Program-made: the position numbers and the translations under genes
In this document: piece by piece, positions 11,689-64,000 of the stretch
Layout of the letters: the number at the start of each line of letters is the position of its first letter
Numbering within the stretch: position 1 is the first letter of the stretch
DNA from: a phage
Assembly: GCA_025812035.1 (NCBI GenBank)
Contig: GCA_025812035.1_4719.1
Reading direction: 5' to 3' (one strand)
Length of the DNA: 64,000 bases
Notes under the pieces: model-generated
Databases searched by the model: none
What the model was told of the DNA's origin: nothing
The model's input: only the letters and a program-made list of their open reading frames with translations

Positions 11689-11727
11689 CACACACTCCTT
11701 TCAGAAAGTTGCTTAAGCAGATTAAAG

Positions 11728-47531: not shown

Positions 47532-50336
47532 TTACGCTAATTTACCGAAACCGGCTTTCTGTAGTTTCTCGTTGATCAGTTTTGCTTCAGCGAAAACATA
47601 ATCACGATATGCGGTAACTAACCCATCCACCCGTGAACGCAAGGCTTCTTCGAAGCTATACCACGCAGCGATTTCACGAATCTGAGCGTTGATATAATCA
47701 ACGGTTGAGCGAAGCTCGGTTGCATTTTCTTGCGGGATGGCTTTCACCTGGCGAGCAACGTCATTTAAACGACGGAACTGTGTTTCGATTTCTTTAAACT
47801 TACTGTCAGCAAGTTTGCTGAATTCGTCACCGGAACGAGTAAATAACAGATAGCTGTTGCCATCAAGTGCGGTCGCTAACTGCTGAAGTACATTGGTGTC
47901 CGGATACACAGGAGTACCGCTTTGCAGTACTTTCTCACCGAATTCCGCGAAGTCCTTCGGCGGTAAGTGTGCAGACGTTGTCAATTCGTTGAAACGGAAA
48001 GTCAGCGAACTATCATACAACATCCGGTACGCTTCCATACCCTGTTTCATGGTACCAGCCAGGTTAGCCAGACGCGGAGCAATTTCACCCTCTTTAGCGC
48101 GCTTCTGGTCTTCTAACGCCCCTTCCAGTTCTTTACACTGGTCGTTCAGATACACGATACGATCGGGACGCAGACGACGCATCTCACGAAGAATAGTATC
48201 CAGCTTACCTTCCTGGAAATAACCTAGCGTTAAAGACGTACACGCTTGTTGAAGACGATCGAACACTGGTAAGGTTACCATCTCTTTACGGATACCATCA
48301 ACAATCGCAGAAACAGCCGAAAGTTTCTGTTCTGTGGTTAATGGAACGTCAGAGACCGACTTGCTGGGCGCACCAACAACGTTACGCATTGCGTCGGTAT
48401 CCTCGGTTTTATCAACCTCTTTACGAACATTCTCGTCGGGAACATAAACGTTCGCATTACGTTTTGCCTGTTTGATGGCATCGCTGGCCGCTTTTTCGGT
48501 GGCCGCTACGCTATCGGCACGTTTCTTCAAGAGTTCAATAATCCAAAGCAACAGACGACGAATCGCAGTGTAGGCTGTCGTGATGATGACGCCGATAACA
48601 GCCATCTTCATGATACCGAACGATTCCATGGTCGGCTCTAACGCCTGGTCAGGCATATACCGTTCACGCAGCTCCAGATAGATCTGCTCATCCGGTTTGC
48701 TGATCTCACCACGATGCGAAGTCCGATAGATGGCTTCGTCAATCTCAACAAGATCTTTACGTGCTTGACGGTCTGTTTCGGTCAAATAAGCGCAGCCGGA
48801 TACGTCGTCTTCAAAACTTTCGAACTTAAAGAAATCGACAACCATCTTGGCAAGCGCCTCTTTCTTAGCAGGATCGAGCGTCTTCGCATCTTCTTTTTGC
48901 TTATCCATTTTTTCCTTGAATTTCTCTTTGTAGTCATTCAAGGGTTTTACCGCTCTTGCCCTCAACGCGTTATAGATAGTTTTCCAACTTTCTTCGCGTT
49001 CTAAGATAAGGAAGTAGTTTTTGAGTTCGAAAGCACGGTAACGTGCAACGAGCTGTTCTACCTGAGCATGAGCGAGTTGTACATCCATCAACCAGCGGGA
49101 CAATGCTGAAACCAAACGACTATAAGCAAGCAGCGTTTGATATGTCAGCTTCATGTGTTTCTCGTAGAGTTCAATATCTCCGCCCCGGATATCAGCTGTC
49201 GGGTTCATCTCCTTAGTTGCTTTGAAGACTTGTTCAGCTTCATTCAACACTTGCTCGAACTTGACTTCATTGAACGCGTTGAATGGTTCGGCCAGTTCAT
49301 CCATCTGTTCGTGAAGCTCGCGAACCCAAGCTTCTTTGTGATTACGAATGACCGCATCAGCGTGGAGCACGGTTTGATGTTTCTGTACCCATTCTTCGAC
49401 GATATCTGCCGCTGCAACAACACCCATGTTGTCGGAAATCAACGGAATAACATTGGAGAGCATACCAGCACACGCTGGTGTTTTCCAATGATCGTTTAAC
49501 GCGTTACGGAACGCAATAATGTCCGTCATAGACGTAGTGATATCGAGGAACGTGTTACCGTTACGACTCATGCTTGCGATATTTGCAGCAAACGTCTTTT
49601 GCTGATCTACAACGAATGGAATCAATAGCATCAACCATTCAGCAACGCATTTTGCTTTGTCTTTCAGGTTTTTGTCGGCTATTTCTTTGAGATTGATTGC
49701 GCTACCATAACCCGCAAGTTCGTTATATACGTCGTTCAAGGTCATCTGCTTATCCAGCATTTCTCTGAAACGCGGATAATCTTCCCCTAACGCATCGATG
49801 ACATCTTGGATAACATCGTCAGTTGTGGCGATAAATTTCTTCGCGTCGACTTTAGATTTCCAGACGTGTCGTACCGCTTTCTTGATTCCTTCAAAGATAA
49901 ACGCCCAGATACGCTTGATGAGTTCCCAGACTTTCTTCGCACCATCGACAAACAGTTTAGAGACTTTGGCAACGAATCCTTCCTGCACCAACTCAACGCC
50001 GTTACGTGATGGAATTTCGGTGAAGAAAGCATCCGGCAGTTGTTTCGGGAACGCATCACCAAGACGCATACGCAATTCGGGTACATCGGCACGAGAAATA
50101 CCACGCGTCGTTAGCTGCTCGTGAAGACGAACGTTTTCTTCACCAGAGGCTACGAATTCGTTAACGTCAAATGAAACCAGTTCTTGATCTTCGGTGGTAA
50201 CGACGCTTGAACCATCACTGGTTTGGATGTCTTCGTCAGGGAATGCCATGAGCATACCGTGACGCATTTCAACCACCCCGTAATCGGTTGCTAAACCGAA
50301 TTCGTTGTGATCGGGGGTAATAACTGGGATACTCAT
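47532..50336 (-). CDS. large virion-type protein (934 aa) with two copies of the EGF/ESF + amphipathic-helix motif
   Basis: ORF track; motifs VQEGFVAKVSKLFVDGAKKVWELIKRIWAFIFEGIKK and MESFGIMKMAVIGVIITTAYTAIRRLLLWIIELLKK resemble the paralog family. Confidence 0.6.
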   Translation of the reverse strand: MSIPVITPDHNEFGLATDYGVVEMRHGMLMAFPDEDIQTSDGSSVVTTEDQELVSFDVNEFVASGEENVRLHEQLTTRGISRADVPELRMRLGDAFPKQLPDAFFTEIPSRNGVELVQEGFVAKVSKLFVDGAKKVWELIKRIWAFIFEGIKKAVRHVWKSKVDAKKFIATTDDVIQDVIDALGEDYPRFREMLDKQMTLNDVYNELAGYGSAINLKEIADKNLKDKAKCVAEWLMLLIPFVVDQQKTFAANIASMSRNGNTFLDITTSMTDIIAFRNALNDHWKTPACAGMLSNVIPLISDNMGVVAAADIVEEWVQKHQTVLHADAVIRNHKEAWVRELHEQMDELAEPFNAFNEVKFEQVLNEAEQVFKATKEMNPTADIRGGDIELYEKHMKLTYQTLLAYSRLVSALSRWLMDVQLAHAQVEQLVARYRAFELKNYFLILEREESWKTIYNALRARAVKPLNDYKEKFKEKMDKQKEDAKTLDPAKKEALAKMVVDFFKFESFEDDVSGCAYLTETDRQARKDLVEIDEAIYRTSHRGEISKPDEQIYLELRERYMPDQALEPTMESFGIMKMAVIGVIITTAYTAIRRLLLWIIELLKKRADSVAATEKAASDAIKQAKRNANVYVPDENVRKEVDKTEDTDAMRNVVGAPSKSVSDVPLTTEQKLSAVSAIVDGIRKEMVTLPVFDRLQQACTSLTLGYFQEGKLDTILREMRRLRPDRIVYLNDQCKELEGALEDQKRAKEGEIAPRLANLAGTMKQGMEAYRMLYDSSLTFRFNELTTSAHLPPKDFAEFGEKVLQSGTPVYPDTNVLQQLATALDGNSYLLFTRSGDEFSKLADSKFKEIETQFRRLNDVARQVKAIPQENATELRSTVDYINAQIREIAAWYSFEEALRSRVDGLVTAYRDYVFAEAKLINEKLQKAGFGKLA

Positions 50337-50773
50337 GCATTCTCTCCTTGCAGTGCGTTAGCGAAAGCCGTTGCGAGTTGCGCAACCAGCTTAGGATCAA
50401 CACCTTCGATAACGTCAGGCAGCCCTGCGGTTTCTTGGTCACGAACAGCGGAGGCTAATAACAGCATGGTTTCAGGTGCGGTTGGCTCATGCACCATGCG
50501 GTAACGCAGGCACCAGAAGTAGCGGGCAACGTCTAACGCATCAGTCAGCCCAATAACCAGTACCTTGTTCAGCTTATCCAACCCGTCACGGATTTTAGGG
50601 AGATGTTCACGAACGAAGATGCTATCCGCAGTCAGATCTTCTTTTTCAGCGAATACTGGCATGCTGTAACCGGCGATGTAACCTGCAGCAATACTTAATG
50701 CGCGGGTCTGTTGTTCGGCTGGGAAGTCACGTACCAGGTCTTTCAGCTGAACGGCGAAATCAGAAATATTCAT
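50333..50773 (-). CDS. hypothetical protein (146 aa)
   Basis: ORF track; 4-nt overlap with downstream gene. Confidence 0.55.
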   Translation of the reverse strand: MNISDFAVQLKDLVRDFPAEQQTRALSIAAGYIAGYSMPVFAEKEDLTADSIFVREHLPKIRDGLDKLNKVLVIGLTDALDVARYFWCLRYRMVHEPTAPETMLLLASAVRDQETAGLPDVIEGVDPKLVAQLATAFANALQGENA

Positions 50774-50806
50774 GTTAAATTCCTTTATAGTAGAAGGTGA
50801 ATTAGG

Positions 50807-52117
50807 TTACGCGACGACAGAGTCGAGTTTCGCTGACACTTTGAACAGATCGTTGTTCATTGTGGAAGAAAGGACTTGTTGAATTTCTTCCTGTTTAACG
50901 GCTTTACGAACCCCAGGGCGAAGGATAAGCGTAACCATCTGTGAGAAGGTACGGTTATTGTTCATCACACTCAGTGTTTCATCGATTGTTTTGATGGTAT
51001 CCAACGTCATGGAACGAACGTCGCTTGGGACATCACGATCTTTCAGACGTATGATTAAATCTTGTTTGATTTTACGGAATCGTTCCATGTCGTTATCGTA
51101 AATGCTGTATGTTGGATCTAACCAAACAGAAAGCGCGGTTACGGCTACAACAACGAACACACCGATAGCGCCAACAGAAGCTAAACCTATCGCCATCATA
51201 GAGGCTATAGTAGCATCCATGATGAAGGAGAGCCAGAACATCGTTTTAGACTTCATGGAGTTGGTACCATAAAGCCGAAACATTTTAGCAAGCCCGCTAA
51301 CAAGATACTCCCCACCACCATGACGCGTAGCGAACTGATCAGCCATGAATTCGGAAGCAACGTCAGTGTATCGTCCAGCATTGTTTACGTTTCTTAACTG
51401 CATTGCTTTGTTAGAAACATAAACCGTATACCAGACACTACCGTCGTCTGAGTCGCTGATTTTGTTTACATCAACGTTAGTATCCAGCGTTTTGTTTAAC
51501 GCTTTAGCCAGTTCGATACGTTTTACTTTATCGGTTGTTCCCAACAGTTCACGCTGTACGGTCATGATCGAGGCTTCGACACGAACCGTTTCCGATAATG
51601 TTTCAAGGAAAGTAAATGCGTGACCGATTTCATGCAGCATTATGGCTGCTTTTTCTTCCGGAAGAAAGGGTTCTGTCGCTGTTAGCAGTTCATACGTGAT
51701 GGCAGAACGAATCTTCAACTCTTCAAAGATCCCGTAAACACGACCTTTTTCTAAATCGACATAACCGACAGGCGTATCTTTAATCTTCTTAAGGAGCGCA
51801 ATACCATCGACACCACGCATCCATAATCGATGATAGTCTGCCATGATTGTGTTGTTTGTCGAAATATCCGGTGGGTATACGTAGGCATTCATCTGACCCA
51901 TTTTCACGTCAACCGAAAATTCGATGTTCAACCCAGTATAGCGTTTAACCATCTCGGTTAAATGGCCGTCCTTGAAAACGTTTAAAACATCTTTTTTATC
52001 CAGTCCCTGTTTGCTTCTGAAGAACTCGGTCATCTCCTTGAACAAAGAGCCATCTTGAAAATTGATGGCCTCCATCTTTAATTCATCATGACCATACACA
52101 CGTTGTAATAATGACAT
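50807..52117 (-). CDS. membrane-associated Zn metalloprotease, M48 (HtpX/Ste24)-like
   Basis: ORF track; HEIGH (HExxH) followed ~95 aa later by SEFMADQFA (E-x-x-A-D-x-x-A type third ligand motif as I recall for M48), then a ~40-aa hydrophobic stretch (MFWLSFIMDATIASMMAIGLASVGAIGVFVVVAVTALSVWL). Confidence 0.55.
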   Translation of the reverse strand: MSLLQRVYGHDELKMEAINFQDGSLFKEMTEFFRSKQGLDKKDVLNVFKDGHLTEMVKRYTGLNIEFSVDVKMGQMNAYVYPPDISTNNTIMADYHRLWMRGVDGIALLKKIKDTPVGYVDLEKGRVYGIFEELKIRSAITYELLTATEPFLPEEKAAIMLHEIGHAFTFLETLSETVRVEASIMTVQRELLGTTDKVKRIELAKALNKTLDTNVDVNKISDSDDGSVWYTVYVSNKAMQLRNVNNAGRYTDVASEFMADQFATRHGGGEYLVSGLAKMFRLYGTNSMKSKTMFWLSFIMDATIASMMAIGLASVGAIGVFVVVAVTALSVWLDPTYSIYDNDMERFRKIKQDLIIRLKDRDVPSDVRSMTLDTIKTIDETLSVMNNNRTFSQMVTLILRPGVRKAVKQEEIQQVLSSTMNNDLFKVSAKLDSVVA

Positions 52118-52338
52118 TGTACACTCTCTAAATTTACGTAAATTTAAGGGCTAACGGATCGGCTGGCCGCACCAATCACAATGTGTTCGTTGCTATGCAA
52201 CGGCATTCATAGAAATACCTTTTGACGGTAACATCACCTTTCACACCCCAAGCAATAAGAGTGGTCGGTTAAAAACAACAGAACGTGAGGATGATATAGA
52301 AATTCACCTTTTAACACCTATTACGAGTTTATCAAGCC

Positions 52339-54090
52339 ATGAGCGAACAAGAACGAAAACCTAAGAAGAAACTGCTCGGTATTCAATGTCGACACATCAG
52401 TTATAACGAAGCGAACGATGGCAGTAAGAACGATCTCATGATTGCAAAAGAGATCATGTTCTTTGATGATAATACGCAGGCAACGAACCTTCGATTCTTC
52501 GAGAATTACAAACGTCCATTTTGGGTGACGGTAGAGAGTAAACGTAAGAACAAATATAAAAAGGAAAGCGAGAAGCTCTCGCATGTACGTCGCTATGATG
52601 TCCGTCAAAGTGAACTGGTCGATAAAATCAGTTCGGTGCTTTATAAAAGACGTGCTGATGATAACACCCGCTTACAACAGCTCGCACGGAGTCCATACCT
52701 CTATGGAACGGACGTTAGCGCTAGCTGTTATTTAAAAACCCAATACAATACAAAATGGCCGGAATACGCCGATAAATTACCTGCCACCATCGCATGTTTC
52801 GATATCGAAACCGACGTTGTTCATGGGCACGGTAAGATCGTTTGTATGTCTATTACAATGGGCTACAATGCGATACTTTGCTATACCAAGGACTTCGTTG
52901 GTCATATTCCGAATGCGATCGAGAAAACCCACGAGAAGATTCGATATTACCTGGCCGAACGTCTGAACACCAAAGAGGATCCTCACGCGTTCGAAAAATA
53001 TCATTACGATGTTCGAATCGTAGAAAGCCCAGCACAAGCGGTCATCCAATGCATGCAGAAGGTTCACGAATGGCAGCCGGATTATCTCCTTGGCTGGAAT
53101 ATCGCGTTCGATATTCCACGTATGCTCCAGGCGCTGAACGAGGAAGGGTATCGTCCCGAGGATGTTTTCTCCGATCCTCGCGTACCCCCTAAGTATCGCA
53201 TTGCTCGCTGGGTACCACCGAAGACCGACAAGGTATCTGCTTCAGGTCGTAAAACCAACCTTACCCTTGAGCAGACCTGGCCGATGTTTTATACGATGGC
53301 TACATACCAGGTTATGGATGCGATGTGTGGTTATAAGTTCGTTCGTTTAGGAAGACCGGATGAAGGACGTTATTCACTCGATGCGGTGTTAGAGCGTAAT
53401 AAATGTCATACGAAACTAAAAGCGATTCCTGGTACAGAAGGGTTCACGGAGCTCGCCTGGCACGAAGAGATGCAAACGAACCATCAAATCGACTACGGCG
53501 TATATAACCTTTGGGATAACCAAGGTATTGAGGCATTGGACCAGAAAACAAAAGACTATTCGATGACCATCCCTATTCGTTTAGCGGCGTCGGATTTGAA
53601 AGATTTCAGTTCCAACCCTAAACGTATCTGTGATAAACTTTTCTTCGTTTATCTTAACCGTGGGGAAGTCATGGGATGCACCGCCGACGACATGACCCAG
53701 GAAGAAGATAAATGGGTTATCTCACGAGCAGGACATATCGTCACATTACCATGCGATCTCATGGCAGACAACGGCATACATCTCTTCTGGGATATGCCGA
53801 ACTTGAGAAGTTATATCCGTCTATTCGTTGCAGACCTTGACATAAGCAGTTCATACCCGAATGGGCAGATCCTGCTCAATCTATCCAGGGCGTGTGTTTT
53901 TCGTGAGCTCTCACGTATTGAGGGCGTCTCTGACTATCAATTCAGGAAGCTAGGTATCAACTTTATTACCGGAGGTAAAACGAACGCGGTAGACTTCTGT
54001 AGAATCGTTTATAAAGCACCATCGATGTTCGAACTCTTAGAACATTTCGATGCGACGCGTCCGAAAGAGGAAGCGCGAACCATCGAATGA
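52339..54090 (+). CDS. family B DNA polymerase, N-terminal part (3'-5' exonuclease domain plus palm motif A); motifs B and C not encoded here
   Basis: ORF track; Exo I ACFDIETD, Exo II LGWNIAFDIPRM, Exo III YGVYNLWD, motif A-like DLDISSSYPNG (cf. DxxSLYPS); ORF ends ~70 aa after motif A with no YGDTDS-type motif; followed by a hairpin and T-rich tract. Confidence 0.6.
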   Translation: MSEQERKPKKKLLGIQCRHISYNEANDGSKNDLMIAKEIMFFDDNTQATNLRFFENYKRPFWVTVESKRKNKYKKESEKLSHVRRYDVRQSELVDKISSVLYKRRADDNTRLQQLARSPYLYGTDVSASCYLKTQYNTKWPEYADKLPATIACFDIETDVVHGHGKIVCMSITMGYNAILCYTKDFVGHIPNAIEKTHEKIRYYLAERLNTKEDPHAFEKYHYDVRIVESPAQAVIQCMQKVHEWQPDYLLGWNIAFDIPRMLQALNEEGYRPEDVFSDPRVPPKYRIARWVPPKTDKVSASGRKTNLTLEQTWPMFYTMATYQVMDAMCGYKFVRLGRPDEGRYSLDAVLERNKCHTKLKAIPGTEGFTELAWHEEMQTNHQIDYGVYNLWDNQGIEALDQKTKDYSMTIPIRLAASDLKDFSSNPKRICDKLFFVYLNRGEVMGCTADDMTQEEDKWVISRAGHIVTLPCDLMADNGIHLFWDMPNLRSYIRLFVADLDISSSYPNGQILLNLSRACVFRELSRIEGVSDYQFRKLGINFITGGKTNAVDFCRIVYKAPSMFELLEHFDATRPKEEARTIE

Positions 54091-54138
54091 TTAAAGTATG
54101 TTGATCCTCGTTTAACAAAAAAGAAAACGCATGCGAAG

Positions 54139-54170
54139 CCCCTCCCCCTGGCGGAAGCCGGAGGGAGGGG
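54139..54170. terminator. hairpin terminator after the polymerase gene
   Basis: CCCCTCCC…CGG-AAG-CCG…GGGAGGGG imperfect nested stem, then TGGAGGTTTTATGTGTTTTTAATT on plus; convergent with the first gene of the small-paralog array. Confidence 0.6.
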
Positions 54171-54188
54171 TGGAGGTTTTATGTGTTT

Positions 54189-54638
54189 TTAATTATTATT
54201 GGTGGGGTTATCGTCCGGTTTATATTCAATGCCGTAGGCGACGTAACGGTCTGTTGTATGGACGACAAGCGAGATAGGGAAATCATAATGCATAGTTTTG
54301 TCTCGAACGAGCTGAGTAAAGAGATCCATATAACGTATTAAGTCTTCACTGGTGTAATCAGAAGGGAAGAAGACATCGATGGTTATTGAATCTTCATAGA
54401 GGCGTACGACCAACTTATCCAGAAGGTCGGCATATTGGTTAGCCGGGGTGACGTCCATCTGACAGATGCCACGATCTCCTTCGTCTCGCGATACCCACAT
54501 CGTGGTATCCTGTAATGAGGTTTCAAGGATCTCGAAAATACATTTTGCTGTAAGTCTTAGTTTATTTGTTACGTCATGGTTAGGTGAATAATGGTCACGG
54601 ATGTTTTTCACTGCGTCTTTGATAGAGAAAGTCATCAT
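54189..54638 (-). CDS. small acidic protein, member 1 of tandem paralog array (149 aa)
   Basis: ORF track; C-terminal signature HYDFPISLVVHTTDRYVAYGIEYKPDDNP shared with neighbours. Confidence 0.6.
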   Translation of the reverse strand: MMTFSIKDAVKNIRDHYSPNHDVTNKLRLTAKCIFEILETSLQDTTMWVSRDEGDRGICQMDVTPANQYADLLDKLVVRLYEDSITIDVFFPSDYTSEDLIRYMDLFTQLVRDKTMHYDFPISLVVHTTDRYVAYGIEYKPDDNPTNNN

Positions 54639-54648
54639 TGATGCTCCT

Positions 54649-55158
54649 TCAAATGAAATTAATACGTGCGGCTGTCGAAACGAGTTCGCTTGTAAAGCAA
54701 TGCTTACCGTCGGGATTTACCGTGTGGGTAAGTTTACAAACCTTAGCGGCAGGGTTAGCGCCGATGACAAGGACGGTCGTCATATCGAACAGTTCCACAC
54801 GTTGAAGAAATGCCGTATCGGCTACCTTCTGTAAACCGGTTGCTTCAAAATCGATGTGGTCGTTAAGAGGCACCAATTGGATTTCAATACGTTCTTTGAA
54901 AAGTTTAAACGTTACTGAAAACCGATGAGGTTCGGCATTAAGCCATAAAGGTCCGCGTTGGAAGTGCTGATATGCTTCATTCGCGGTGTTCTCGAAAACC
55001 CAGCAGTCGTGGACAAGAGAAGCCTCTTGTAACGATGATTCCAGGTAGTCAAATACCTTGTTTATCGTTTTCTCAAGCATAGGTGCTAGTGAACCAGGGT
55101 ATCCAGCAAATGCTGCTTCGGCAATCGATTTTATTGATACGATGTTGTTCTGACTCAT
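54649..55158 (-). CDS. small protein, member 2 of tandem paralog array (~169 aa)
   Basis: ORF track 54649..55185; ATG 55156-55158 with AAGGAA SD; N-terminal helix LEKTINKVFDYLESSL and FDMTTVLVIG…VNPDG weak family signature. Confidence 0.5.
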   Translation of the reverse strand: MSQNNIVSIKSIAEAAFAGYPGSLAPMLEKTINKVFDYLESSLQEASLVHDCWVFENTANEAYQHFQRGPLWLNAEPHRFSVTFKLFKERIEIQLVPLNDHIDFEATGLQKVADTAFLQRVELFDMTTVLVIGANPAAKVCKLTHTVNPDGKHCFTSELVSTAARINFI

Positions 55159-55162
55159 TTCT

Positions 55163-55615
55163 TTATTCCTTGTTGGCTTCTTCAATGTACTTGGTGTCGT
55201 AAGACAAATGCTGAATTAATTTTCTAGGCTCGATGAAAATACGACACGTGATAAACACATCAGGGTTGTATTGTTCCACGCAACGTCCGAAGGCTTGTTT
55301 TGCGGCGTGACGCATCAACACTAATTCCCGATCGTTCATCTCATCATCAAATTCGATATGTATCGTGATTTTATCGGGAAATAAATAGATAGAGTAATCG
55401 CTACCAATACCGTCGTCGTCAAAGCGATAATCGTTGTGGTAATGGTGAAGTTTACCTTCGTGTACCGTCTGGTACCACCCGACGATACTATCAAGACCCA
55501 TACCCAGGCGTCCGAATGCCTGATTAATAATATCCTCGACGACGGATGCGGGGGTGGGACCATTGAACAATCTATCCAGACGTTTTTTCATCGATTTGTC
55601 TGTTTTCACATTCAT
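55163..55615 (-). CDS. small protein, member 3 of tandem paralog array (~150 aa)
   Basis: ORF track 55163..55666; ATG 55613-55615 with AGGAA SD avoids the hairpin at ~55646-55681; C-terminal FITCRIFIEP…. Confidence 0.5.
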   Translation of the reverse strand: MNVKTDKSMKKRLDRLFNGPTPASVVEDIINQAFGRLGMGLDSIVGWYQTVHEGKLHHYHNDYRFDDDGIGSDYSIYLFPDKITIHIEFDDEMNDRELVLMRHAAKQAFGRCVEQYNPDVFITCRIFIEPRKLIQHLSYDTKYIEEANKE

Positions 55616-55645
55616 CGATTCTGTTCCTGTTATAGTCAGTATAAA

Positions 55646-55681
55646 CCCTCCTTCCCTAGCCATCAAGGCCGGGGAAGGGGG
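55646..55681 (-). terminator. imperfect hairpin inside the small-paralog array
   Basis: CCCTCCTTCCC…GGGGAAGGGGG with mismatches; lies between members 3 and 4. Confidence 0.4.
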
Positions 55682-55693
55682 TATGTGCGTTAT

Positions 55694-56101
55694 TTATGCT
55701 TCGTTGTCAACTAAAGGTGCTGTATGTTTCTTACCGTCGATGTGCCAAATGAGACACGCTGGATAGAGGTTAACATCTAGAGAGCAGGGGAGGCCATATT
55801 TCTCTTCCAGTTCGTAAAGACGTTCAGCGAGCTGCTTCCGTCCATCATCATCGTTTTGCAATGCATGATGGCCGAATCGTTGCTGGTCGTTCTTTACATA
55901 CGCCTCGAAAAGTATATGTTGTTGAAAAACGATGATTCTTACACCTTCAAGTATGTCGGTGTCGAGCATGCGAGAAAAACTCATACATGCCTCTGATGCC
56001 GAAGACGAGTTTTCCTCTTTAACAATATCAATCATCGCGGTGATACGTGGCTGATCGATGTTGTCGTTAACCGCTTTAACGATGGAATCTACAATACTCA
56101 T
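55694..56101 (-). CDS. small protein, member 4 of tandem paralog array (135 aa)
   Basis: ORF track; N-terminal helix SIVDSIVKAVNDNI; weak C-terminal signature LPCSLDVNLYP. Confidence 0.5.
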   Translation of the reverse strand: MSIVDSIVKAVNDNIDQPRITAMIDIVKEENSSSASEACMSFSRMLDTDILEGVRIIVFQQHILFEAYVKNDQQRFGHHALQNDDDGRKQLAERLYELEEKYGLPCSLDVNLYPACLIWHIDGKKHTAPLVDNEA

Positions 56102-56138
56102 TTTTTATCCTTAATGTTACCGGTTTAGAAATATTATT

Positions 56139-56903
56139 TTATTTACTGTTATCCTTATCGACAGTTGTTACCCATGATGGGAAAGCCGGATGGAAACAGA
56201 GCGTGAACGTAACCTTCGCATCGTATTTAAGCGCGTGGTTCACTAACCGGGTATCGAACGTTTTCCTTAGCCCGTCATCATCATTATCGATGATAGTCAT
56301 ATCCCTTAATATCCCAAGCACGTTAACGCCATCGGGTGTCTGGGTTACGACGACTCGTCGTAACGGCCCATGTGTATAGTCACGTACGTATCCTTTCTTC
56401 GGGTCCGATACTCTGTTTAACGCATCGCGATTTTCGATGAGTTCATCAGCAATACGATAGATGTGTTCCCTTGCTTTATCGTGATCGTATTCTGCTAATA
56501 GTTCCTTTGTATCGAACGATATCGCGTTACTATCATTCGATTCAGAAGGGAAATAAAGAACTAAACGAACAGGGTATTCGTATTGATCCGTTCTCGTTTC
56601 GAAAACACCGGCTAAACATGGTTTATATGCCTTTGCGTCGACGTTGTCTAAACACGGATGCAATAATGCGTGAATAACGACACCATCGTCAGTTAAACCG
56701 AATTCCAGAAATTGTGTTTCATCGGTATCTGTTACCGTTTTCTGAAGATACGCTTTACCGTTAACGATATCGGTATCCCATATATCGTCGTTTAATGATT
56801 CTTCAAACTTATCGAATATAAGGTTTACGGTATCGATGAGTCCATCGATACGCCACTGCTGATTGCTCTCAATTAATTGCTGAACCTTATCTTTGATAGA
56901 CAT
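56139..56903 (-). CDS. member 5 of tandem paralog array, apparently duplicated-domain form (254 aa)
   Basis: ORF track; two signature-like segments (EYPVRLVLYFPSESNDSNAISFD and KVTFTLCFHP). Confidence 0.55.
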   Translation of the reverse strand: MSIKDKVQQLIESNQQWRIDGLIDTVNLIFDKFEESLNDDIWDTDIVNGKAYLQKTVTDTDETQFLEFGLTDDGVVIHALLHPCLDNVDAKAYKPCLAGVFETRTDQYEYPVRLVLYFPSESNDSNAISFDTKELLAEYDHDKAREHIYRIADELIENRDALNRVSDPKKGYVRDYTHGPLRRVVVTQTPDGVNVLGILRDMTIIDNDDDGLRKTFDTRLVNHALKYDAKVTFTLCFHPAFPSWVTTVDKDNSK

Positions 56904-56905
56904 GA

Positions 56906-57364
56906 TTACTCCTTAGTTCCTTCTTCGTCAGGTGTATACGCCAATGTGAAGAATTCATAACCATCAACAAACTTGAATGTTACTGTAATAGGGAAATCGC
57001 ACGGCATGACGGATTTCATAAATGCATCATTAGCAACCTCAGATAACCGACGTATGACATCTCCCCTGCTGGCGTTGAATGGTAGTTTTATGTCGATAAG
57101 GATGCGGTGCTTGTAAACATAGAAAACAACGGTACTGTCAAGATAAATACCAGAGAGCTGCGTTGTTGGGATGCGTTCCACAATGGAAAAATACGTCCCA
57201 TCAGTATCGCTATTTCCCACCGACCATTTATCGGATTTGCGTAGATTTTCTTTGAGGGATTCGACACTTCGAGTGATGACCTCAACGATAGGCGTGACGT
57301 AAGCGTCTTTATGCGTGTCGAAAAGTTCGTTAACAGTAGACTTGAATGAATATTCTGTTGTCAT
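56906..57364 (-). CDS. small acidic protein, member 6 of tandem paralog array (152 aa)
   Basis: ORF track; signature CDFPITVTFKFVDGYEFFTLAYTPDEEG. Confidence 0.6.
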   Translation of the reverse strand: MTTEYSFKSTVNELFDTHKDAYVTPIVEVITRSVESLKENLRKSDKWSVGNSDTDGTYFSIVERIPTTQLSGIYLDSTVVFYVYKHRILIDIKLPFNASRGDVIRRLSEVANDAFMKSVMPCDFPITVTFKFVDGYEFFTLAYTPDEEGTKE

Positions 57365-57825
57365 TATTCTACCTCTTTCTTCATCTTCATCGGAACAGAG
57401 AGTGTTGTTACCTCTGTTCCATTATCCGGCTCATATTCCAATGTAACGAGATCGTAACCATCCGATAATTCATAATCGATCGCTAGGGGGAACGAGATAC
57501 CGTGCGACTTTATGCATTTACCAAATGTCTCATTGGCCGTATACATTAGAAGTTGCTTTGCGGCAAGCCCGTTTACGCTGAAAGGTAATCGTGCTGTCGC
57601 AGCGATACGATTATTGTAAACTCTGATATCGGTGATATCTACAATCGTAGCATTGCTATGTTGTAATGTTGGAACGGATAGGCTGTAGAAGTAAGGTTTA
57701 GATCCGGAATCGGGTTCATTAAATAATTCCCAACATCCGTCCTCCTGCAATCTTACCTCGAGTATTTCAAAGCTTTTAATTATCGATTCTACCAGCTGCT
57801 CACCGTAAGAATCCCATGTCGTCAT
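57364..57825 (-). CDS. small acidic protein, member 7 of tandem paralog array (~153 aa)
   Basis: ORF track 57364..57879; ATG 57823-57825 with GAAGGTG SD; signature ISFPLAIDYELSDGYDLVTLEYEPDNG. Confidence 0.6.
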   Translation of the reverse strand: MTTWDSYGEQLVESIIKSFEILEVRLQEDGCWELFNEPDSGSKPYFYSLSVPTLQHSNATIVDITDIRVYNNRIAATARLPFSVNGLAAKQLLMYTANETFGKCIKSHGISFPLAIDYELSDGYDLVTLEYEPDNGTEVTTLSVPMKMKKEVE

Positions 57826-57894
57826 TTTAGCACCTTCGATACCTTTTAACCGACACGTGCCCCACTTAACAAGGGACACGAAGTCGTTGATTAA

Positions 57895-58389
57895 TTACTC
57901 TTCTGTGTTTTCATTGTCAGGATCGTAGTGGAATTCGAACAGCCCTGAACCGTCATGCCCATTGATTGTTAGTATAACGGGCATATCGAATCCTCGGACG
58001 CGCGAATGAAAACACTGTGCTAATTTTAGTTTGGCGTATGCCGCTATTTCATTGATGGCAATACACGACTCACCTGTTATACTCAGTATAACGTCGATAC
58101 TAACAATGTTGTTGTGCAACGCAAAACGCCAACGATCGATATGATTATTATCTTTAGCGGTTGTCTCGTTTACGAGATAGACTTTATCGTCAGCCGACAA
58201 AGCGGGGCTCCAGCAACGTTCGTTTATTAAATTCGCCTGGAGTTTTAGTATCGTCTGATCAATAATATCCCAACACGTAACCAGCGTGGCGTCAGACACT
58301 GAATTGAGAAGGGCGAGCACTTTATCCTTTATTTTAAGTGCTTCCGCAGGACGCCCGCAAATACCATGCATTTCAACTTTCTTATTCAT
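57895..58389 (-). CDS. small acidic protein, member 8 of tandem paralog array (~164 aa)
   Basis: ORF track 57895..58395 (GTG); ATG 58387-58389 with AAAAGAGG SD; signature FDMPVILTINGHDGSGLFEFHYDPDNENTEE. Confidence 0.6.
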   Translation of the reverse strand: MNKKVEMHGICGRPAEALKIKDKVLALLNSVSDATLVTCWDIIDQTILKLQANLINERCWSPALSADDKVYLVNETTAKDNNHIDRWRFALHNNIVSIDVILSITGESCIAINEIAAYAKLKLAQCFHSRVRGFDMPVILTINGHDGSGLFEFHYDPDNENTEE

Positions 58390-58432
58390 ATTCACCTCTT
58401 TTTTAATCTAAATGTTAGTTGGGATAGGGCGA

Positions 58433-59065
58433 TCACATGCTTTCTAACATATTGACGATCATGGAACCCATACCGAAACTCGGTCTCTCGCCGATGTACT
58501 CAGCAAGCTGACGATGAACGTCTTTTGGATTCCCTTCTTCACCGTCGGCATCGATGTAAACCGAAAAAGAAAATGAATCGGAATCCACGCTGATAACCAG
58601 ACGACGTTCATTGCGTTCCTTGAGTGTATCGACAATAGCTGCTTTCAGTACTGTGATCGCGTTCATCGCGTGCAAGATATCTCCATCAGGTCTCGCCAGA
58701 TCGATCTTTTCTTTCAGGTCGATATTGATGTTGGTTACAATTGGATTGAGATCGACTTTGACATAATCGTTAGGGGACACGCGAATAATTGCACGATCGA
58801 TATCTGAACCGTAAAAGTCGATACGTGGCTTTAACACTTCTTTGTTTGGATCCATGTTTTCATCCATACCCGCCTGTAGAAAGCGTTCTACGTTATCCAG
58901 TTCACGATAAACTGACGCTTCGATTTCTTTCAGATAGTTGGCTGCGGTTTCATGTTCTTTGCGTAGCTCGTCTTTAAGGAGCTGTACGGTGACTTCACTG
59001 GAACGAATGCTGTTCGCGAATTGTGTAATTGACATATCGAATTCCTTAAGTTCTCTTGAGTTCAA
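58433..59065 (-). CDS. hypothetical protein (210 aa), possibly a distant member of the array
   Basis: ORF track; C-terminal LVISVDSDSFSFSVYIDADGEEG loosely fits the family pattern. Confidence 0.5.
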   Translation of the reverse strand: MNSRELKEFDMSITQFANSIRSSEVTVQLLKDELRKEHETAANYLKEIEASVYRELDNVERFLQAGMDENMDPNKEVLKPRIDFYGSDIDRAIIRVSPNDYVKVDLNPIVTNINIDLKEKIDLARPDGDILHAMNAITVLKAAIVDTLKERNERRLVISVDSDSFSFSVYIDADGEEGNPKDVHRQLAEYIGERPSFGMGSMIVNMLESM

Positions 59066-59094
59066 TTAATGATGAAATGCTGTAAAAAAAAAAT

Positions 59095-59112
59095 GGTGGG
59101 GCGAACCCCACC
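59095..59112 (-). terminator. intrinsic terminator downstream of gene 59137..59562
   Basis: On minus: GGTGGGG-UUCG-CCCCACC followed by U10. Confidence 0.75.
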
Positions 59113-59136
59113 GAAACGTCAGACACACGCAGAAAA

Positions 59137-59562
59137 TCAATTCAGTGATGCATACAACGCATAACGACTGTAGATCTCAACCGCTGGCCCGTTATGCGTT
59201 AACAGACCATCTCGGTTGTAATACTGGAAAAAGGAATAGCGTTTGTCGAAGTGATAAACGAAAGCAATGTCTTTACCGTTAAGACCCGTGATGCGTGGTC
59301 TGTTTTTATCTAGCAATGCTTTGACTTTTAACAGTGTTGCCGCACGTGCTTTAACATTAGGGATTAATCCATCACAGTCGATATAAACCGTGTAACCTGT
59401 TTCAGATGTTGCGACGGTTGTATTGCGATTGACGCGGAAGATTTTTGTTTTGTATGTATTATCTTCAAGGATTGGGTTTTGTTTTTCGTATTTTCGTTTA
59501 TGCAGAAATCCTACAACGGTAATATAGTTAGCGGTAATATGTCCGGTTATAGCCTGTAACAT
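59137..59562 (-). CDS. hypothetical protein (141 aa)
   Basis: ORF track; followed on the minus strand by a hairpin with UUCG loop and a U10 tract. Confidence 0.55.
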   Translation of the reverse strand: MLQAITGHITANYITVVGFLHKRKYEKQNPILEDNTYKTKIFRVNRNTTVATSETGYTVYIDCDGLIPNVKARAATLLKVKALLDKNRPRITGLNGKDIAFVYHFDKRYSFFQYYNRDGLLTHNGPAVEIYSRYALYASLN

Positions 59563-59629
59563 TTTGACATCCTCTTATATTGGATTGATTACAGTTATCT
59601 TAAATAGGCGATAAGATATCTTGCTCTTA

Positions 59630-59690
59630 TCACCTTAGTAATATAGCCGTGAAATAAATTGTGTTAACAAGAAATAAAACAGCATAGAAC
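59630..59690 (-). promoter_or_regulatory. conserved intergenic element, copy 3 (candidate promoter)
   Basis: Plus strand TCACCTTAGTAATATAGCCGTGAAATAAATTGTGTTAACAAGAAATAAAACAGCATAGAA; between a hairpin and the gene starting at 59562. Confidence 0.4.
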
Positions 59691-59730
59691 CCTCCTCCCC
59701 CATCCTTCAAGAGGACGGTGGGAAGAGGGA
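59690..59730 (-). terminator. imperfect nested hairpin of the CCCTCC family
   Basis: CCCTCCTCC…CCATCCT-TCAAG-AGGACGG…GGAAGAGGG; followed on minus by TTCTATGCTGTTTTATTTC. Confidence 0.45.
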
Positions 59731-59736
59731 GAGAGA

Positions 59737-60138
59737 TTAAATGTCGTGGACGGCAACGCTGTTTAACCAGCAATACAGCTTAACGCGACACGGATACCGC
59801 TTCATTGCAGCAACCATTTCATCGCGTAAACGCTGGTAGATTTCATCCTGGTGTTCACGTTCAATGGGGTAATCAGCCCAACATTCGATCATGACGTCAC
59901 CATTAGTCAGAATCGTCGTACGCATCCTGTCCTGGACACGACGATCTTTCCCAGCATTAGGGAAATACATCCCTTCAGTACGAATAAGGTCGCCGCAGGG
60001 CATGACTAACCATTCGTTCGTTTTGCCGGTATTCTTATAATCCATTACAGCTTGCATTGCGGTGTCAACGCTAAAAGAAACATAATTCCAAACGGGTGTC
60101 CAACGATAGATTGCAGGTTGTTCAAGTGTTTCGTTCAT
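59737..60138 (-). CDS. hypothetical protein (133 aa)
   Basis: ORF track; AGGAAAAG SD. Confidence 0.55.
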   Translation of the reverse strand: MNETLEQPAIYRWTPVWNYVSFSVDTAMQAVMDYKNTGKTNEWLVMPCGDLIRTEGMYFPNAGKDRRVQDRMRTTILTNGDVMIECWADYPIEREHQDEIYQRLRDEMVAAMKRYPCRVKLYCWLNSVAVHDI

Positions 60139-60193
60139 GAGGCGCTTTTCCTATTTTTTATTTTCTGCACAGGATAAATTCAACGGCATAAAG

Positions 60194-60225
60194 CCCTTCC
60201 CTGCCCTTATATGGGGCGGGAAGAG
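60194..60225 (-). terminator. imperfect hairpin in a 215-bp noncoding gap
   Basis: CCCTTCCCTGCCC-TTATAT-GGGGCGGGAAGAG; followed on minus by CTTTATGCCGTTGAATTT. Confidence 0.4.
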
Positions 60226-60353
60226 TTTATGACCGCAATGAGAATCTCTCACGACAAGCTCACGACGATTATCGCATCACCCCGCGAGTGAGGGAGATCA
60301 GGATCACCTCCTACGTCGTAATGACAGCAATCCTGTTAACGCCGCCTTAGACG

Positions 60354-60992
60354 TTATGCAAAGCGACGCATGTAACCTGCCAGGTAGTTACGTGTATCGA
60401 AGTAGGCAATTTCAGGAATTGCGATATTAAGGTCGATAGCACGGATTTCAACCTGGCGACGGCTTTCATCATAGATCGCATCCATCAGACGCAGTACTGT
60501 CAGGAAAGCCATGCGGGTATGGTAGTCCAGCGGCATGTTATCGATGCCACGATACAGGTAACGATTTGCGTTGAATGCCCCTTCGCTGTTATCTTTCCAG
60601 ATCTTCAGAATATCAGCAAAGGCGGTGCGGAAAACCTCAGGATTATCCACATCCAGTAACGCACGGAAAGCAGACATTAAAGATCGCTGATGACGGATCA
60701 AGGACTGCGGCGTTTGCGGCATGGTCGGACCCATTTCTTCCGCATATTTCTGGAACGGGGCAACCAGGGTTGCGGCGCGAGAAGCAACGATAGAAATAGC
60801 AGGCGATTCATTCACCGCTGGTTTCGCAGGCTTTTCTTCAACTGCGGTTTCCTTCTTCTCAACAACGACCGTTTTCGGTTGTGCTACAACGTTGTTGGTC
60901 GGAGCAGCAGCCGCACCATTTTCCACGGCGGTCTCTACTGCTGTAATCTTTTCGTCCATTTGTGCGGAACGTTGGTCTTTATTCTTGCTCAT
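60354..60992 (-). CDS. hypothetical protein (212 aa), highly expressed by codon usage, Lys/Glu/Ala/Pro-rich N-terminal region
   Basis: ORF track; AAAGGAAA SD; codon bias similar to the capsid candidate. Confidence 0.6.
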   Translation of the reverse strand: MSKNKDQRSAQMDEKITAVETAVENGAAAAPTNNVVAQPKTVVVEKKETAVEEKPAKPAVNESPAISIVASRAATLVAPFQKYAEEMGPTMPQTPQSLIRHQRSLMSAFRALLDVDNPEVFRTAFADILKIWKDNSEGAFNANRYLYRGIDNMPLDYHTRMAFLTVLRLMDAIYDESRRQVEIRAIDLNIAIPEIAYFDTRNYLAGYMRRFA

Positions 60993-61017
60993 GTTTATTT
61001 CCTTTCATTTAACAAGG

Positions 61018-62319
61018 TTAACTAATATAAAGTTCAGGATCGTAAGGCGCTAACGATACACTGGCGTTATGCATTGCTTTCATCATAGTGTTCATGAAAA
61101 CGTTGTTTACACCGGTGATCTCTGCCCCGATCGCGTCTGGGGTTGGAGCCATCGCGTTACCGCAACAGGTAGCACAGTATTCCAACGGACCCGCTTTACA
61201 GCGCTGAGGATCGCGTAACTTGATGGTCTGTCCTTCCAAGGAAGCAAGTAAGTCAGCATCAATAAGTTTAAGCGCTGCACCGTCGATCATATAACGTCCG
61301 ACAAGCAGCTTATCTTTGATGTGATCACGGTTCACCGTGAACAGGATATGTTCTTGGGTACCGCAGTCGTCCATCGTGATTTTAAGGTTCTGTGTCGCAC
61401 GTTGTGATTCCTTAGCTGTTTGTCCAGCTAAAGCGGTCAACGCACCACGTGAGAACGAACCAGCACGCGCACTGTTGTTATACTCTGCCCAATGGTCGAC
61501 ACGCATCCCTTCAGCCAGGCTGTGTGTGATAACGTTACGTTTACCAGGGTCAACGAAGTCAGCTTCAACCCCCATCATGATGTGCGTTTTCTTTCGAGTA
61601 TTACCGAAACTCTTGCCAGGGTTAATATAGAACCCTTCCGACTCATCACCCTTAAAGGATTCCTTATCCATTTTGGTTAGCGTGGCCTCGAGTTTGATCA
61701 GTTCTTCAGGTGTGAACTTACCTTCTTCTTGTAGACGTGCTAACTCTTTATCACGATAGGCGATAATATCGTCATCGACCGTTAACGCTTTATCGCTCAT
61801 CGATGGAACAATTAAACGGTTGATGGCGGTTAATGCGCTGATATTGTTGGTGAATTTCTTCACCTCGCTCGCATACAACGGACCAATCGGACGTTCGTTA
61901 GGATCAGGTATCCCCTCTTCAGGATCATCCGCTACGCGTGGTGCAATCAATGATTCCAATGTACCGCTGGTCAACCGTCCCGCCTGGTATTCAATCTGAA
62001 TCCCGAAAGCGTCATAAAGGACGTACATATTGAACAACGCTTCACCGAAGGTTGTGGTGGTTGTGTTCTTAACCGACGGTAGATCACCAGGCGCAAGCTC
62101 CAACGGATCCCAGAAATTCAACAAGGGTTTTGTTGGCTCTGTTTCCCATTGATGTTCTTCACCGTCGATGGTAACCGTAACGATGTTTCCCTGACGACGT
62201 AATTTAGGCTGATACTTCTCAGCGCCACCTTCCGTAAAAGCAAATGCGTCGTTAATCCACTCAAGATAACGGTAGTGCCCTTCACGCAACGCGTAAAGGA
62301 AATAATCACGAGGTGTCAT
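61018..62319 (-). CDS. multisubunit RNA polymerase beta' subunit fragment (region F bridge helix to start of trigger loop)
   Basis: ORF track; AAAGGAG SD. Segment order and wording parallel E. coli beta': PDG…ARxG…ALTALAGQTAK (bridge helix, cf. GARKGLADTALKTANSG), TMDDCGTQEHIL (cf. TEDDCGTHEGIM), RCKAGPLEYCATCCGN (cf. CDTDFGVCAHCYGR Zn motif), PDAIGAEITG…TMMKAMH (cf. [25 protein letters not shown]). No NADFDGD, and the protein ends just after the trigger-loop start. Confidence 0.5.
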   Translation of the reverse strand: MTPRDYFLYALREGHYRYLEWINDAFAFTEGGAEKYQPKLRRQGNIVTVTIDGEEHQWETEPTKPLLNFWDPLELAPGDLPSVKNTTTTTFGEALFNMYVLYDAFGIQIEYQAGRLTSGTLESLIAPRVADDPEEGIPDPNERPIGPLYASEVKKFTNNISALTAINRLIVPSMSDKALTVDDDIIAYRDKELARLQEEGKFTPEELIKLEATLTKMDKESFKGDESEGFYINPGKSFGNTRKKTHIMMGVEADFVDPGKRNVITHSLAEGMRVDHWAEYNNSARAGSFSRGALTALAGQTAKESQRATQNLKITMDDCGTQEHILFTVNRDHIKDKLLVGRYMIDGAALKLIDADLLASLEGQTIKLRDPQRCKAGPLEYCATCCGNAMAPTPDAIGAEITGVNNVFMNTMMKAMHNASVSLAPYDPELYIS

Positions 62320-62332
62320 GTAGTAACTCCTT

Positions 62333-63205
62333 TTAAACGTGGGTCAGGTCACCGTGACGTGAAACGAACTCTGATAACGCTCGGATTGCTTCTTTGGATT
62401 CTTCAGCCATCGGGAAGTTGACGGTAACAAGTTCTCGTAAGACAGGAATGATTTCATTGTCTTCGAGATCGGAAGCTAAGGCGAACGCGATCAGTTCTTG
62501 GGCGTATGCGTACGGTTGCTGGCGTAAAGCAGCAAGCTGATTCCGACACTGCGCTATCAGCAGGTCCAGCGGAACCGCTATCGTACCCCCTTCGTCAACA
62601 TATTGGCTGAATACCGGTGGGAATGCATCACTGATTACACGAATTCGTCTGCGAATGCGATCAGGGATCTGGATGTTTTCTTCATCGGCTACGTTTTCGC
62701 TATCTTTCTCCAGCTTCTTGGTCAGCACCTGCTGGATGCGTGGAAGCAGACTTGAATGCACGAAACTGATCAATGGGGTTACGTTAACAGCGTCGACGCC
62801 GTAAATATGTCGTGCGCATTCTGCTAACGCTTCAGCTGCGGTGTAGTCTTCGTCTTCAACGATAGCGAGTAGAAAATCGGTATCGTCATGTGTTTCCAGG
62901 TCTAATAACGTAGACGCTAACGCATGAAGATACTTCAGGCTATCCAGAGATAGTTGCCCTTCGTTAACTCGGATCCCGAAGGCAAGCAATTGTTGTTTAT
63001 AAAGTTCGATACACCCGTTTGTTAAAATGACATCTAATTCGTTTAAATCGTACTGTTCTCCAGCACCTGACAACATTGTACTACAAAACGTTTCCAGTTG
63101 CTCGCATTTAAAATCTTGGTATAAACGATACATGCAGTGCTGTAACAGCGTACGCCTTGTTTCAGGGATTTTACCTTCTAACAAAGCCAAGACGGAATCA
63201 ATCAT
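62333..63205 (-). CDS. hypothetical protein (~291 aa)
   Basis: ORF track 62333..63211 (GTG); ATG 63203-63205 with GGAG SD. Confidence 0.55.
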   Translation of the reverse strand: MIDSVLALLEGKIPETRRTLLQHCMYRLYQDFKCEQLETFCSTMLSGAGEQYDLNELDVILTNGCIELYKQQLLAFGIRVNEGQLSLDSLKYLHALASTLLDLETHDDTDFLLAIVEDEDYTAAEALAECARHIYGVDAVNVTPLISFVHSSLLPRIQQVLTKKLEKDSENVADEENIQIPDRIRRRIRVISDAFPPVFSQYVDEGGTIAVPLDLLIAQCRNQLAALRQQPYAYAQELIAFALASDLEDNEIIPVLRELVTVNFPMAEESKEAIRALSEFVSRHGDLTHV

Positions 63206-63301
63206 ATCCACTCCGATGCGGTAAATGTCTACTAGCTCTCATAATCTATTGAAGAAACTACCGGCTGACGCCAACTTAGATCAATCAGGAGTAACCATCC
63301 C

Positions 63302-63775
63302 ATGCCAGTTTCATCCAAACCAAGAAAAAAATCAGTAGGAAAACCTAAAGCTCAGGAAACAACAGCAATTCGTTGGGACGAGTTACGCGAACCTATCGAA
63401 AACTGCGAATTGTTATTGAGCACCCTGGGTGCGGCTATTTACCAAGCAACGCAACCCTGCCGTTTACGATTAACCCAAAACAAGCGCGATGAGTTCGTTG
63501 CGTTATCAACAAGCACGAATAAAGATCTTACCGAACTTCAAACCGAATTGACGACGATCAAGAACTCCGTCACGCCGATGTACGGTAAAGAAGTTGATGA
63601 ACAAAGTATTCTGTTACAGTACAACTACGGGATGTCGTTAATGAACATCCTGGAACGCGCATCCGATATTCTACGTCCTGACGTCGCACGCCTGAGTCAA
63701 CTGCGTGTTGAAGGGATGGAGAACCAGATCCGATTCGCTAACAGTGTTAAATCTCAAGGAGCCACCGAAGCATGA
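63302..63775 (+). CDS. hypothetical protein (157 aa)
   Basis: ORF track; AGGAGTAA SD 7 nt upstream. Confidence 0.6.
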   Translation: MPVSSKPRKKSVGKPKAQETTAIRWDELREPIENCELLLSTLGAAIYQATQPCRLRLTQNKRDEFVALSTSTNKDLTELQTELTTIKNSVTPMYGKEVDEQSILLQYNYGMSLMNILERASDILRPDVARLSQLRVEGMENQIRFANSVKSQGATEA

Positions 63776-64000
63776 GCGAACAAGAAAAAGAAATTGTGAC
63801 GAGCCAGGAAGATAAGGTTGAGGTAACGGCTCAACCTGTTCATGAAGGTAATACTTCTACGCAGCAGGAAAGTAAAGAAGTTGCTGACGCTCCAGAAGCA
63901 ACCCATGAAGAAGAACCGTCACATCCGCCGCTGATCGATTTCTCAAAAGCAACGATACGTTTCCAGTGCGAAGATATTCGCCCTAAGAGCCCAAAGAAAA
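63772..64000 (+). CDS. hypothetical protein, N-terminal part only (runs off the right edge)
   Basis: ATG overlapping the upstream stop (ATGA); open to the window end (MSEQEKEIVTSQEDKVEVTAQPVHEG…); absent from track because edge-truncated. Confidence 0.5.
   Translation, partial: MSEQEKEIVTSQEDKVEVTAQPVHEGNTSTQQESKEVADAPEATHEEEPSHPPLIDFSKATIRFQCEDIRPKSPKK

Follow-up and report, generated by a model that had tools for sequence, protein, structure and literature searches.

The Mid-β′ locus

The DNA analysed here, referred to as the window, is a stretch of 64,000 nucleotides from a phage (GenBank assembly GCA_025812035.1, contig GCA_025812035.1_4719.1). Close to its end lies a gene for a stand-alone piece of the β′ subunit of a multisubunit RNA polymerase (RNAP), for which we use the existing name of the corresponding piece of a five-polypeptide virion RNAP, Mid-β′ or β′M (PMC7598289; PMC5105663). 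The gene occupies positions 61018..62319 on the minus strand and encodes 433 amino acids plus a stop codon. It is defined by the open reading frame (ORF) list, PHROG 2962, the homologues Goslar gp78 and phiKZ gp80, and an AlphaFold model. A preliminary description of the window had placed a 433-codon ORF at this position without stating its strand, and the ORF is real. Read from the sequence, its ATG is at 62319-62317 (minus strand), and a Shine-Dalgarno sequence, AAGGAG (62327..62332, minus strand), lies 7 nt 5′ of the ATG and overlaps the stop-codon region of the upstream gene. The stop codon of that gene is at 62335-62333, leaving 13 nt between it and the Mid-β′ ATG.

The upstream gene (62333..63211, minus strand) is co-oriented with Mid-β′, encodes 292 amino acids and is a homologue of Goslar gp79, phiKZ gp79 and SPN3US gp41. 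On the other side, 25 nt separate the Mid-β′ stop codon from the next gene downstream. A terminator scan identified a strong, intrinsic-terminator-like hairpin at 59095..59112 (minus strand), with the sequence GGTGGGG-TTCG-CCCCACC followed by T9, which probably ends the transcription unit containing the Mid-β′ gene; in Goslar a terminator is annotated at the corresponding site, after gp075.

Family and closest relatives

A tblastn search of cultured phage genomes matched Mid-β′ over its full length to gp78 of phage Goslar (YP_009820763.1) with 98.6% identity and six substitutions; RefSeq names the Goslar protein (gp078) “RNA polymerase beta subunit”. Both proteins have 433 amino acids and both genes have the same neighbours, gp79 upstream and gp77 downstream, whereas the genomes around them differ. 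Over the 14 kb compared (window positions 50000-64000), DNA identity to Goslar is 92% across 81% of the length, in the same orientation. The window corresponds to approximately 27-91 kb of a Goslar-like genome, and its source is a close relative of this Escherichia coli jumbo phage. The collection of cultured phages searched does not include that genome. Two more Goslar-like contigs are present in IMG/VR, neither of them identical to the window.

Beyond Goslar, the tblastn search returned ~300 further matches at 24-34% identity, all in jumbo phages, with genomes of ~200-320 kb among those listed. In total the family is present in 304 cultured phage genomes, and the hosts of the matching phages include Pseudomonas, Erwinia, Salmonella, Vibrio, Serratia, Klebsiella, Ralstonia, Bacillus and Staphylococcus. 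Residues 1-432 align to positions 1-432 of the 433 in the profile of PHROG 2962, “RNA polymerase beta subunit” (E 2e-106), and phiKZ gp80 is matched end to end by BLASTP (E 1e-50, 32% identity). phiKZ gp80 and SPN3US gp42, with 449 and 431 amino acids, are virion proteins encoded directly downstream of a gp79-like gene, and differ from the window protein by sequence divergence only; for example, the DDCGT motif of the window protein is EDCNT in phiKZ gp80. When 1.84 billion representative proteins were searched with a profile, 949 clusters scored at E<=1e-30; of the top 150, nearly all have lengths of 420-460 amino acids. Four relatives from outside the window (P0014, P0038, P0040 and P0104) carry an extra N-terminal domain of ~150 amino acids (YHGS...FAT...) with a weak Pfam DUF6886 match (E 1.4e-6); these could be fusions or gene-calling artefacts.

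Homology to β′ and active-centre elements

We built a family profile from an alignment of 142 diverse Mid-β′ sequences. A single-sequence phmmer search of the PDB with the window protein was marginal (E 0.03). The family profile matched solely RNAP β′ chains and phage β′-like chains, the best being a bacterial β′ (E 2.7e-10), with the β′-C chain of the AR9 non-virion enzyme (7S00_D, E 1.7e-8) and phiKZ gp74 (7OGP_D, E 7.5e-7) also among them. Comparison of the family with E. coli RpoC by hhalign aligned residues 260-417 to β′ residues 755-936 (probability 91.7%, E 7.7e-7), including an ungapped block in which residue i corresponds to E. coli residue i+495. The profile comparisons, of a kind that the preliminary description had proposed as a check on membership of the RpoC family, place the protein among β′ chains.

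Three active-centre elements lie within the aligned region. The bridge helix (residues 274-309; 61393..61500, minus strand) is a 36-residue helix in the AlphaFold model, with R285, R291, T295 and G299 conserved; in the hhalign alignment R285, T295 and G299 correspond to E. coli R780, T790 and G794, and none of the 142 relatives departs from R291, T295 or G299. It is followed by the second zinc-binding module of β′ (61165..61365, minus strand). Here the DDCGT motif at residues 317-321 aligns to E. coli β′ 812-816 and supplies the first of four cysteines, C319, C374, C382 and C385, which correspond to the E. coli zinc ligands C814, C888, C895 and C898. All four are invariant in the 142 relatives, the last three forming a C-x7-C-x2-C cluster between residues 374 and 385. 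A four-cysteine zinc module has likewise been described in phiKZ gp74 (PMC8287921). The third element is the first trigger-loop helix (residues 397-417; 61069..61131, minus strand), again a helix in the AlphaFold model and aligned by hhalign, in which M413 corresponds to E. coli M932 and H417 to the trigger-loop histidine H936. H417 is invariant in 142/142 relatives and position 413 is M or L in all of them.

The AlphaFold model, built with the family alignment, has a mean pLDDT (predicted local distance difference test) score of 94.3. A Foldseek search of the PDB with this model returned β′ as all of its top matches, comprising bacterial chains and AR9 β′-C, over ~390-440 columns with E ~1e-10. 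Homology to β′, the register of the motifs and the fold are each shown here for this protein. The bridge helix, DDCGT motif, cysteine cluster and trigger-loop start that had been recognised by eye are present and in register in the hhalign alignment and the PDB profile search, and their key residues are invariant.

Extent and ends of the fragment

The preliminary description had the homology run from region F to the start of the trigger loop. The motif register holds over that range, but the homology begins earlier, at approximately E. coli residue 520. The N-terminal 260 residues (61540..62319, minus strand) correspond to the part of β′ between the catalytic barrel and the F-loop, on the evidence of hidden Markov model (HMM) alignment, weak hhalign matches and Foldseek. 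A collinear HMM alignment pairs profile positions 96-337 with Streptomyces β′ 659-901 (E 6e-9). A weak hhalign match in the same register pairs residues 78-152 with E. coli 561-623, placing the nearly invariant G92, part of a TTxG..N motif at residues 88-97, opposite E. coli G575. When the family was aligned by hhalign to E. coli β′ 460-760 alone, the match was weak (E 0.11). A helix pair at residues 183-221 may lie opposite the rim helices of the secondary channel. Given the collinear HMM alignment, the weak hhalign match and the near-full-length Foldseek matches, the protein corresponds to about E. coli β′ 520-950. It spans everything from just past the catalytic double-psi barrel up to the trigger-loop tip, and is collinear with that segment of RpoC and contains the same active-centre elements. 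The E. coli protein, in contrast, is one chain of 1407 amino acids that includes the NADFDGD loop and regions G-H, whereas in the phage there are two cuts, one past the catalytic barrel and one within the trigger loop. A motif search found no D.DGD motif in Mid-β′, in line with the absence of the NADFDGD loop noted earlier, and the protein has no element able to bind the catalytic magnesium.

At its C-terminus the chain ends inside the trigger loop, with a tail of 16 residues beyond the trigger-loop histidine (61021..61068, minus strand). That the product stops shortly after the start of the trigger loop had been noticed already, and the family alignment adds that this end point is constant: 136 of the 142 relatives have a tail of exactly 16 residues, the range overall being 15-19. 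The polypeptide break within the trigger loop belongs to the fixed architecture of the protein and is not a truncation, and its constancy across the family should be helpful to work on the virion enzyme. This second cut in β′ presumably lies near the site of the SI3 insertion in E. coli β′.

A decaying remnant of a full-length rpoC, truncated and functionless, would also lack the catalytic loop and the C-terminal third of β′, and could fail to match Pfam, as this protein does. Such a pseudogene would not, however, be expected to share its length and end point with 136/142 relatives that are only ~30% identical, nor to keep invariant active-centre residues. The fold is predicted with high confidence, the ribosome-binding site is strong and the orthologue is found in virions. 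We give the pseudogene explanation practically no credence.

A natural split of β′ downstream of the catalytic barrel is also known from cyanobacteria, as RpoC1 and RpoC2; RpoC2 differs in that it runs to the end of β′ and has no second split. According to a 2020 review, the cyanobacterial and phage split sites coincide (PMC7598289). In our profile alignment, residue 142 of RpoC2 lies opposite profile position 250. On a rough count that ignores insertions and deletions, the cyanobacterial break would fall ~100 residues inside Mid-β′, suggesting, contrary to the review, that the two sites are near each other but not identical.

Assignment to the virion polymerase

phiKZ-like phages have two split RNAPs, a virion enzyme (vRNAP) and a non-virion enzyme (nvRNAP). 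The gene in the window almost certainly encodes the Mid-β′ (β′M) subunit of the vRNAP of a Goslar-like, nucleus-forming jumbo phage, and is the orthologue of Goslar gp78, phiKZ gp80 and SPN3US gp42. phiKZ gp80 is a subunit of the virion enzyme and is annotated as a structural head protein; it co-immunoprecipitates with Gp180, the DFDGD-bearing subunit. The SPN3US study of 2016 named gp42 (431 amino acids) β′M, found it gone from heads when the N-β subunit gp241 is missing, and identified gp244 as the missing C-terminal piece (PMC5105663). In Goslar the vRNAP comprises gp78, gp196, gp205, gp207 and gp210, all of which have been detected in virions, gp78 by mass spectrometry, and a supplementary table on this phage labels gp078 “vRNAP” with an estimated 14-33 copies per virion.

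The main competing assignment is the C-terminal β′ subunit of the nvRNAP, of the phiKZ gp74 / AR9 gp154 type, which is made post-infection and works in the phage nucleus. The bridge helix, the four-cysteine zinc module and the first trigger helix are common to this subunit and occur in the same order in its structures (7OGP, 7S00). Accordingly, the family profile matches 7ogp_D and 7s00_D, and PHROG 3015 gives a partial match (E 1e-10, residues 261-389). Against this, phiKZ gp74 has no significant BLASTP similarity to the window protein, whereas gp80 matches it end to end. The non-virion subunits have 630-680 amino acids, continue through the rest of β′ and are not packaged; the window protein, at 433 amino acids against 677, is without the ~300 residues beyond the trigger helix. 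Goslar gp78 occurs in virions and is counted among the vRNAP subunits, and synteny with the gp79 homologue is kept. We consider the non-virion assignment highly improbable. Full-length homology to non-virion β′-C was looked for separately and rejected, the match to PHROG 3015 covering only residues 261-389 and profile positions 212-343 of 653, as suits a profile of the longer type.

The orthology observed here is to the virion set and not to the non-virion set. The preliminary description had read the gene as a stand-alone internal β′ fragment of a split RNAP of the phiKZ type, which agrees with phiKZ gp80, Goslar gp78, PHROG 2962 and the literature name Mid-β′; we refine this in that the protein belongs to the virion enzyme and not to the non-virion enzyme. 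Mid-β′ has already been described, since the near-identical Goslar protein is annotated, assigned to the vRNAP and detected in virions. As a near copy of that protein, the gene carries little weight as a discovery in this window, and the interest lies in the enzyme family, an assembly of five β and β′ pieces with no α or ω that recognises early promoters without a sigma-like factor.

Several observations count against assigning Mid-β′ to such an enzyme, or limit how far the assignment can be taken. No Pfam family matched the protein even at E<=10, and no RNA_pol_Rpb1 domain was found, so that it could be assigned to a family only by comparing profiles and structures. The residue opposite E. 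coli R933 is lysine in only 74/142 relatives. The partner genes lie outside the 64-kb window and so are not visible for this phage. The copy of the PDB that we searched held no match to a virion RNAP of this kind, and no such enzyme had been purified as of the 2020 review (PMC7598289), so it is from the parts that we infer the assembly and the completion of the trigger loop in trans.

Partner subunits and proposed assembly

The preliminary description had supposed that the remaining parts of β′ are encoded elsewhere. None was found in the window, as that would require, and the Goslar counterparts lie at 204-229 kb, outside the stretch that matches the window. A tblastn search of the window with the Goslar vRNAP partners and with phiKZ nvRNAP gp71, gp73 and gp74 (gp123 was not among the queries) found none of them, and no DFDGD motif was found in six frames of the window or of the Goslar stretches examined. 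In Goslar, gp205 (502 amino acids) is N-β′, gp207 (1448 amino acids) is the large β piece, and gp196 (224 amino acids) has a C-terminal β motif, judged by eye against GEMEVWAL. That leaves gp210 (236 amino acids; PHROG 2926, “virion structural protein”), the fifth vRNAP subunit listed, which by elimination would be the C-β′ piece. A Pfam scan of these Goslar partner subunits gave no match.

The absence of DFDGD from the Goslar stretches examined led to the finding that an intron appears to split the motif in that phage. The annotated gp205 has no DxDGD. A 59-codon unannotated frame in Goslar (NC_048170.1, 211577-211753, minus strand; L005:578-754) starts FDGDTVSVNV and ends just before gp207, and it sits downstream of a homing-endonuclease (HNH) gene, gp206, and an annotated group I intron. 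Exon 1 of Goslar N-β′ would end ...LGGD and exon 2 would start FDGD..., with the intron inside the magnesium-binding DFDGD motif.

Interruptions of this kind raise the possibility that the Mid-β′ ORF is itself one exon, its frame continuing after a self-splicing intron, and that the fragment is an annotation artefact. Goslar offers precedents: group I introns or insertions of homing endonucleases break up its genes for N-β′, for an nvRNAP β′ and for a DNA polymerase. When the window was scanned in full with Rfam, however, no family matched, group I introns included, and only 25 nt lie between the stop codon and the gene that follows, whose Goslar counterpart encodes the capsid decorator gp77. 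The Mid-β′ family has a fixed end point, and the C-terminal piece of β′ is a virion protein in its own right, the product of a distant gene. There is hardly any chance, in our judgement, that the ORF is an exon of a longer gene.

To the active centre Mid-β′ contributes the stretch of β′ that forms the funnel and secondary channel, together with the F-loop, bridge helix, second zinc module and first trigger helix, the last bearing the catalytic histidine. Alone it would be catalytically meaningless and would need to assemble with four other phage polypeptides. In the proposed arrangement, N-β′ would bring the DFDGD magnesium site, the small virion protein C-β′ the rest of β′, and N-β plus C-β would form the other large subunit, giving an enzyme without homologues of α, ω or sigma. 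As Mid-β′ ends part-way through the trigger loop, C-β′ would have to provide the other trigger helix, so that the loop, a mobile catalytic element, would be completed in trans and built from two polypeptides. The complex would then be packaged in the capsid and injected with the DNA, to transcribe early genes independently of the host polymerase. These last features come from the literature on close relatives, in which the enzyme has five subunits, is packaged at roughly 10-30 copies per virion, enters the cell with the DNA and transcribes early genes without host RNAP; the same may be expected of the phage from which the window derives.

The window also contains a gene at 9892-11691 (minus strand) for a 599-residue homologue of phiKZ gp123 (7OGP_E, phmmer E 2.6e-40; PHROG 2943). 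gp123 is the C-terminal β-like subunit of the nvRNAP, and the window homologue corresponds to Goslar gp039, annotated only as “polymerase”. With this gene, both phage RNAPs are represented in the window, by a single piece each.

A gp79-like gene is conserved upstream of Mid-β′

The gp79-like protein matches phiKZ gp79 by BLASTP (E 5e-9) and SPN3US gp41 by hhalign (E 1e-20). We surveyed 39 IMG/VR loci with a Mid-β′ homologue, retrieved with an 8-sequence alignment, 38 of which have an upstream ORF. At nearly all 39 loci an ORF of ~275-300 amino acids ends between -35 and +13 nt from the Mid-β′ start, and overlaps of 4 or 14 nt are frequent; in SPN3US the gp41-gp42 pair overlaps by 14 nt. An iterated HMM search identified the upstream ORF as a gp79-like homologue at 35 of the 38 loci, where Mid-β′ is only ~30% identical and the gp79-like protein only ~15-20%. 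The predicted fold of the gp79-like protein is all-helical and gave no informative PDB match.

The gp79-like protein could be an unrecognised partner of Mid-β′, acting as an accessory subunit, as an assembly or packaging factor, or as the missing promoter-specificity factor of the vRNAP, although we think this rather unlikely. Goslar virions contain ~10-24 copies of gp079, within the range of 5-33 for vRNAP subunits. Two observations speak against its forming a stable complex: the set of proteins missing from the heads of the SPN3US gp241 mutant does not include gp41 (PMC5105663), and Bacillus phage AR9 has no gp79-like gene upstream of its Mid-β′. A phiKZ interactome paper makes no mention of gp79. 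We regard the association with the vRNAP as a lead, not a finding; the conservation of the gene immediately upstream of Mid-β′, often overlapping its start, should be helpful to work on the enzyme.

Other features of the window

Beginning 25 nt past the Mid-β′ stop codon, a gene at 60354-60992 (minus strand) encodes a 212-residue homologue of Goslar gp77, which, according to a 2026 preprint, is a decorator protein located on the outside of the capsid. Pfam scans of the genes neighbouring Mid-β′ gave nothing except a sub-threshold HEAT match.

The DNA polymerase gene of the window (52339-54090, plus strand) is uninterrupted, encoding 583 amino acids with a full-length match to PHROG 3011. In Goslar the polymerase is cut to 499 amino acids (gp068) by a ~1.7 kb insertion with the NUMOD1/HNH endonuclease gp069, and in the alignment the window reads straight through the insertion point. 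Three adjacent small paralogues of 152, 171 and 166 amino acids lie at 56906-58395 (minus strand; BLASTP E 1e-15 to 6e-5), and the small ORFs beside them, from 54649 to 56903, look only weakly related.

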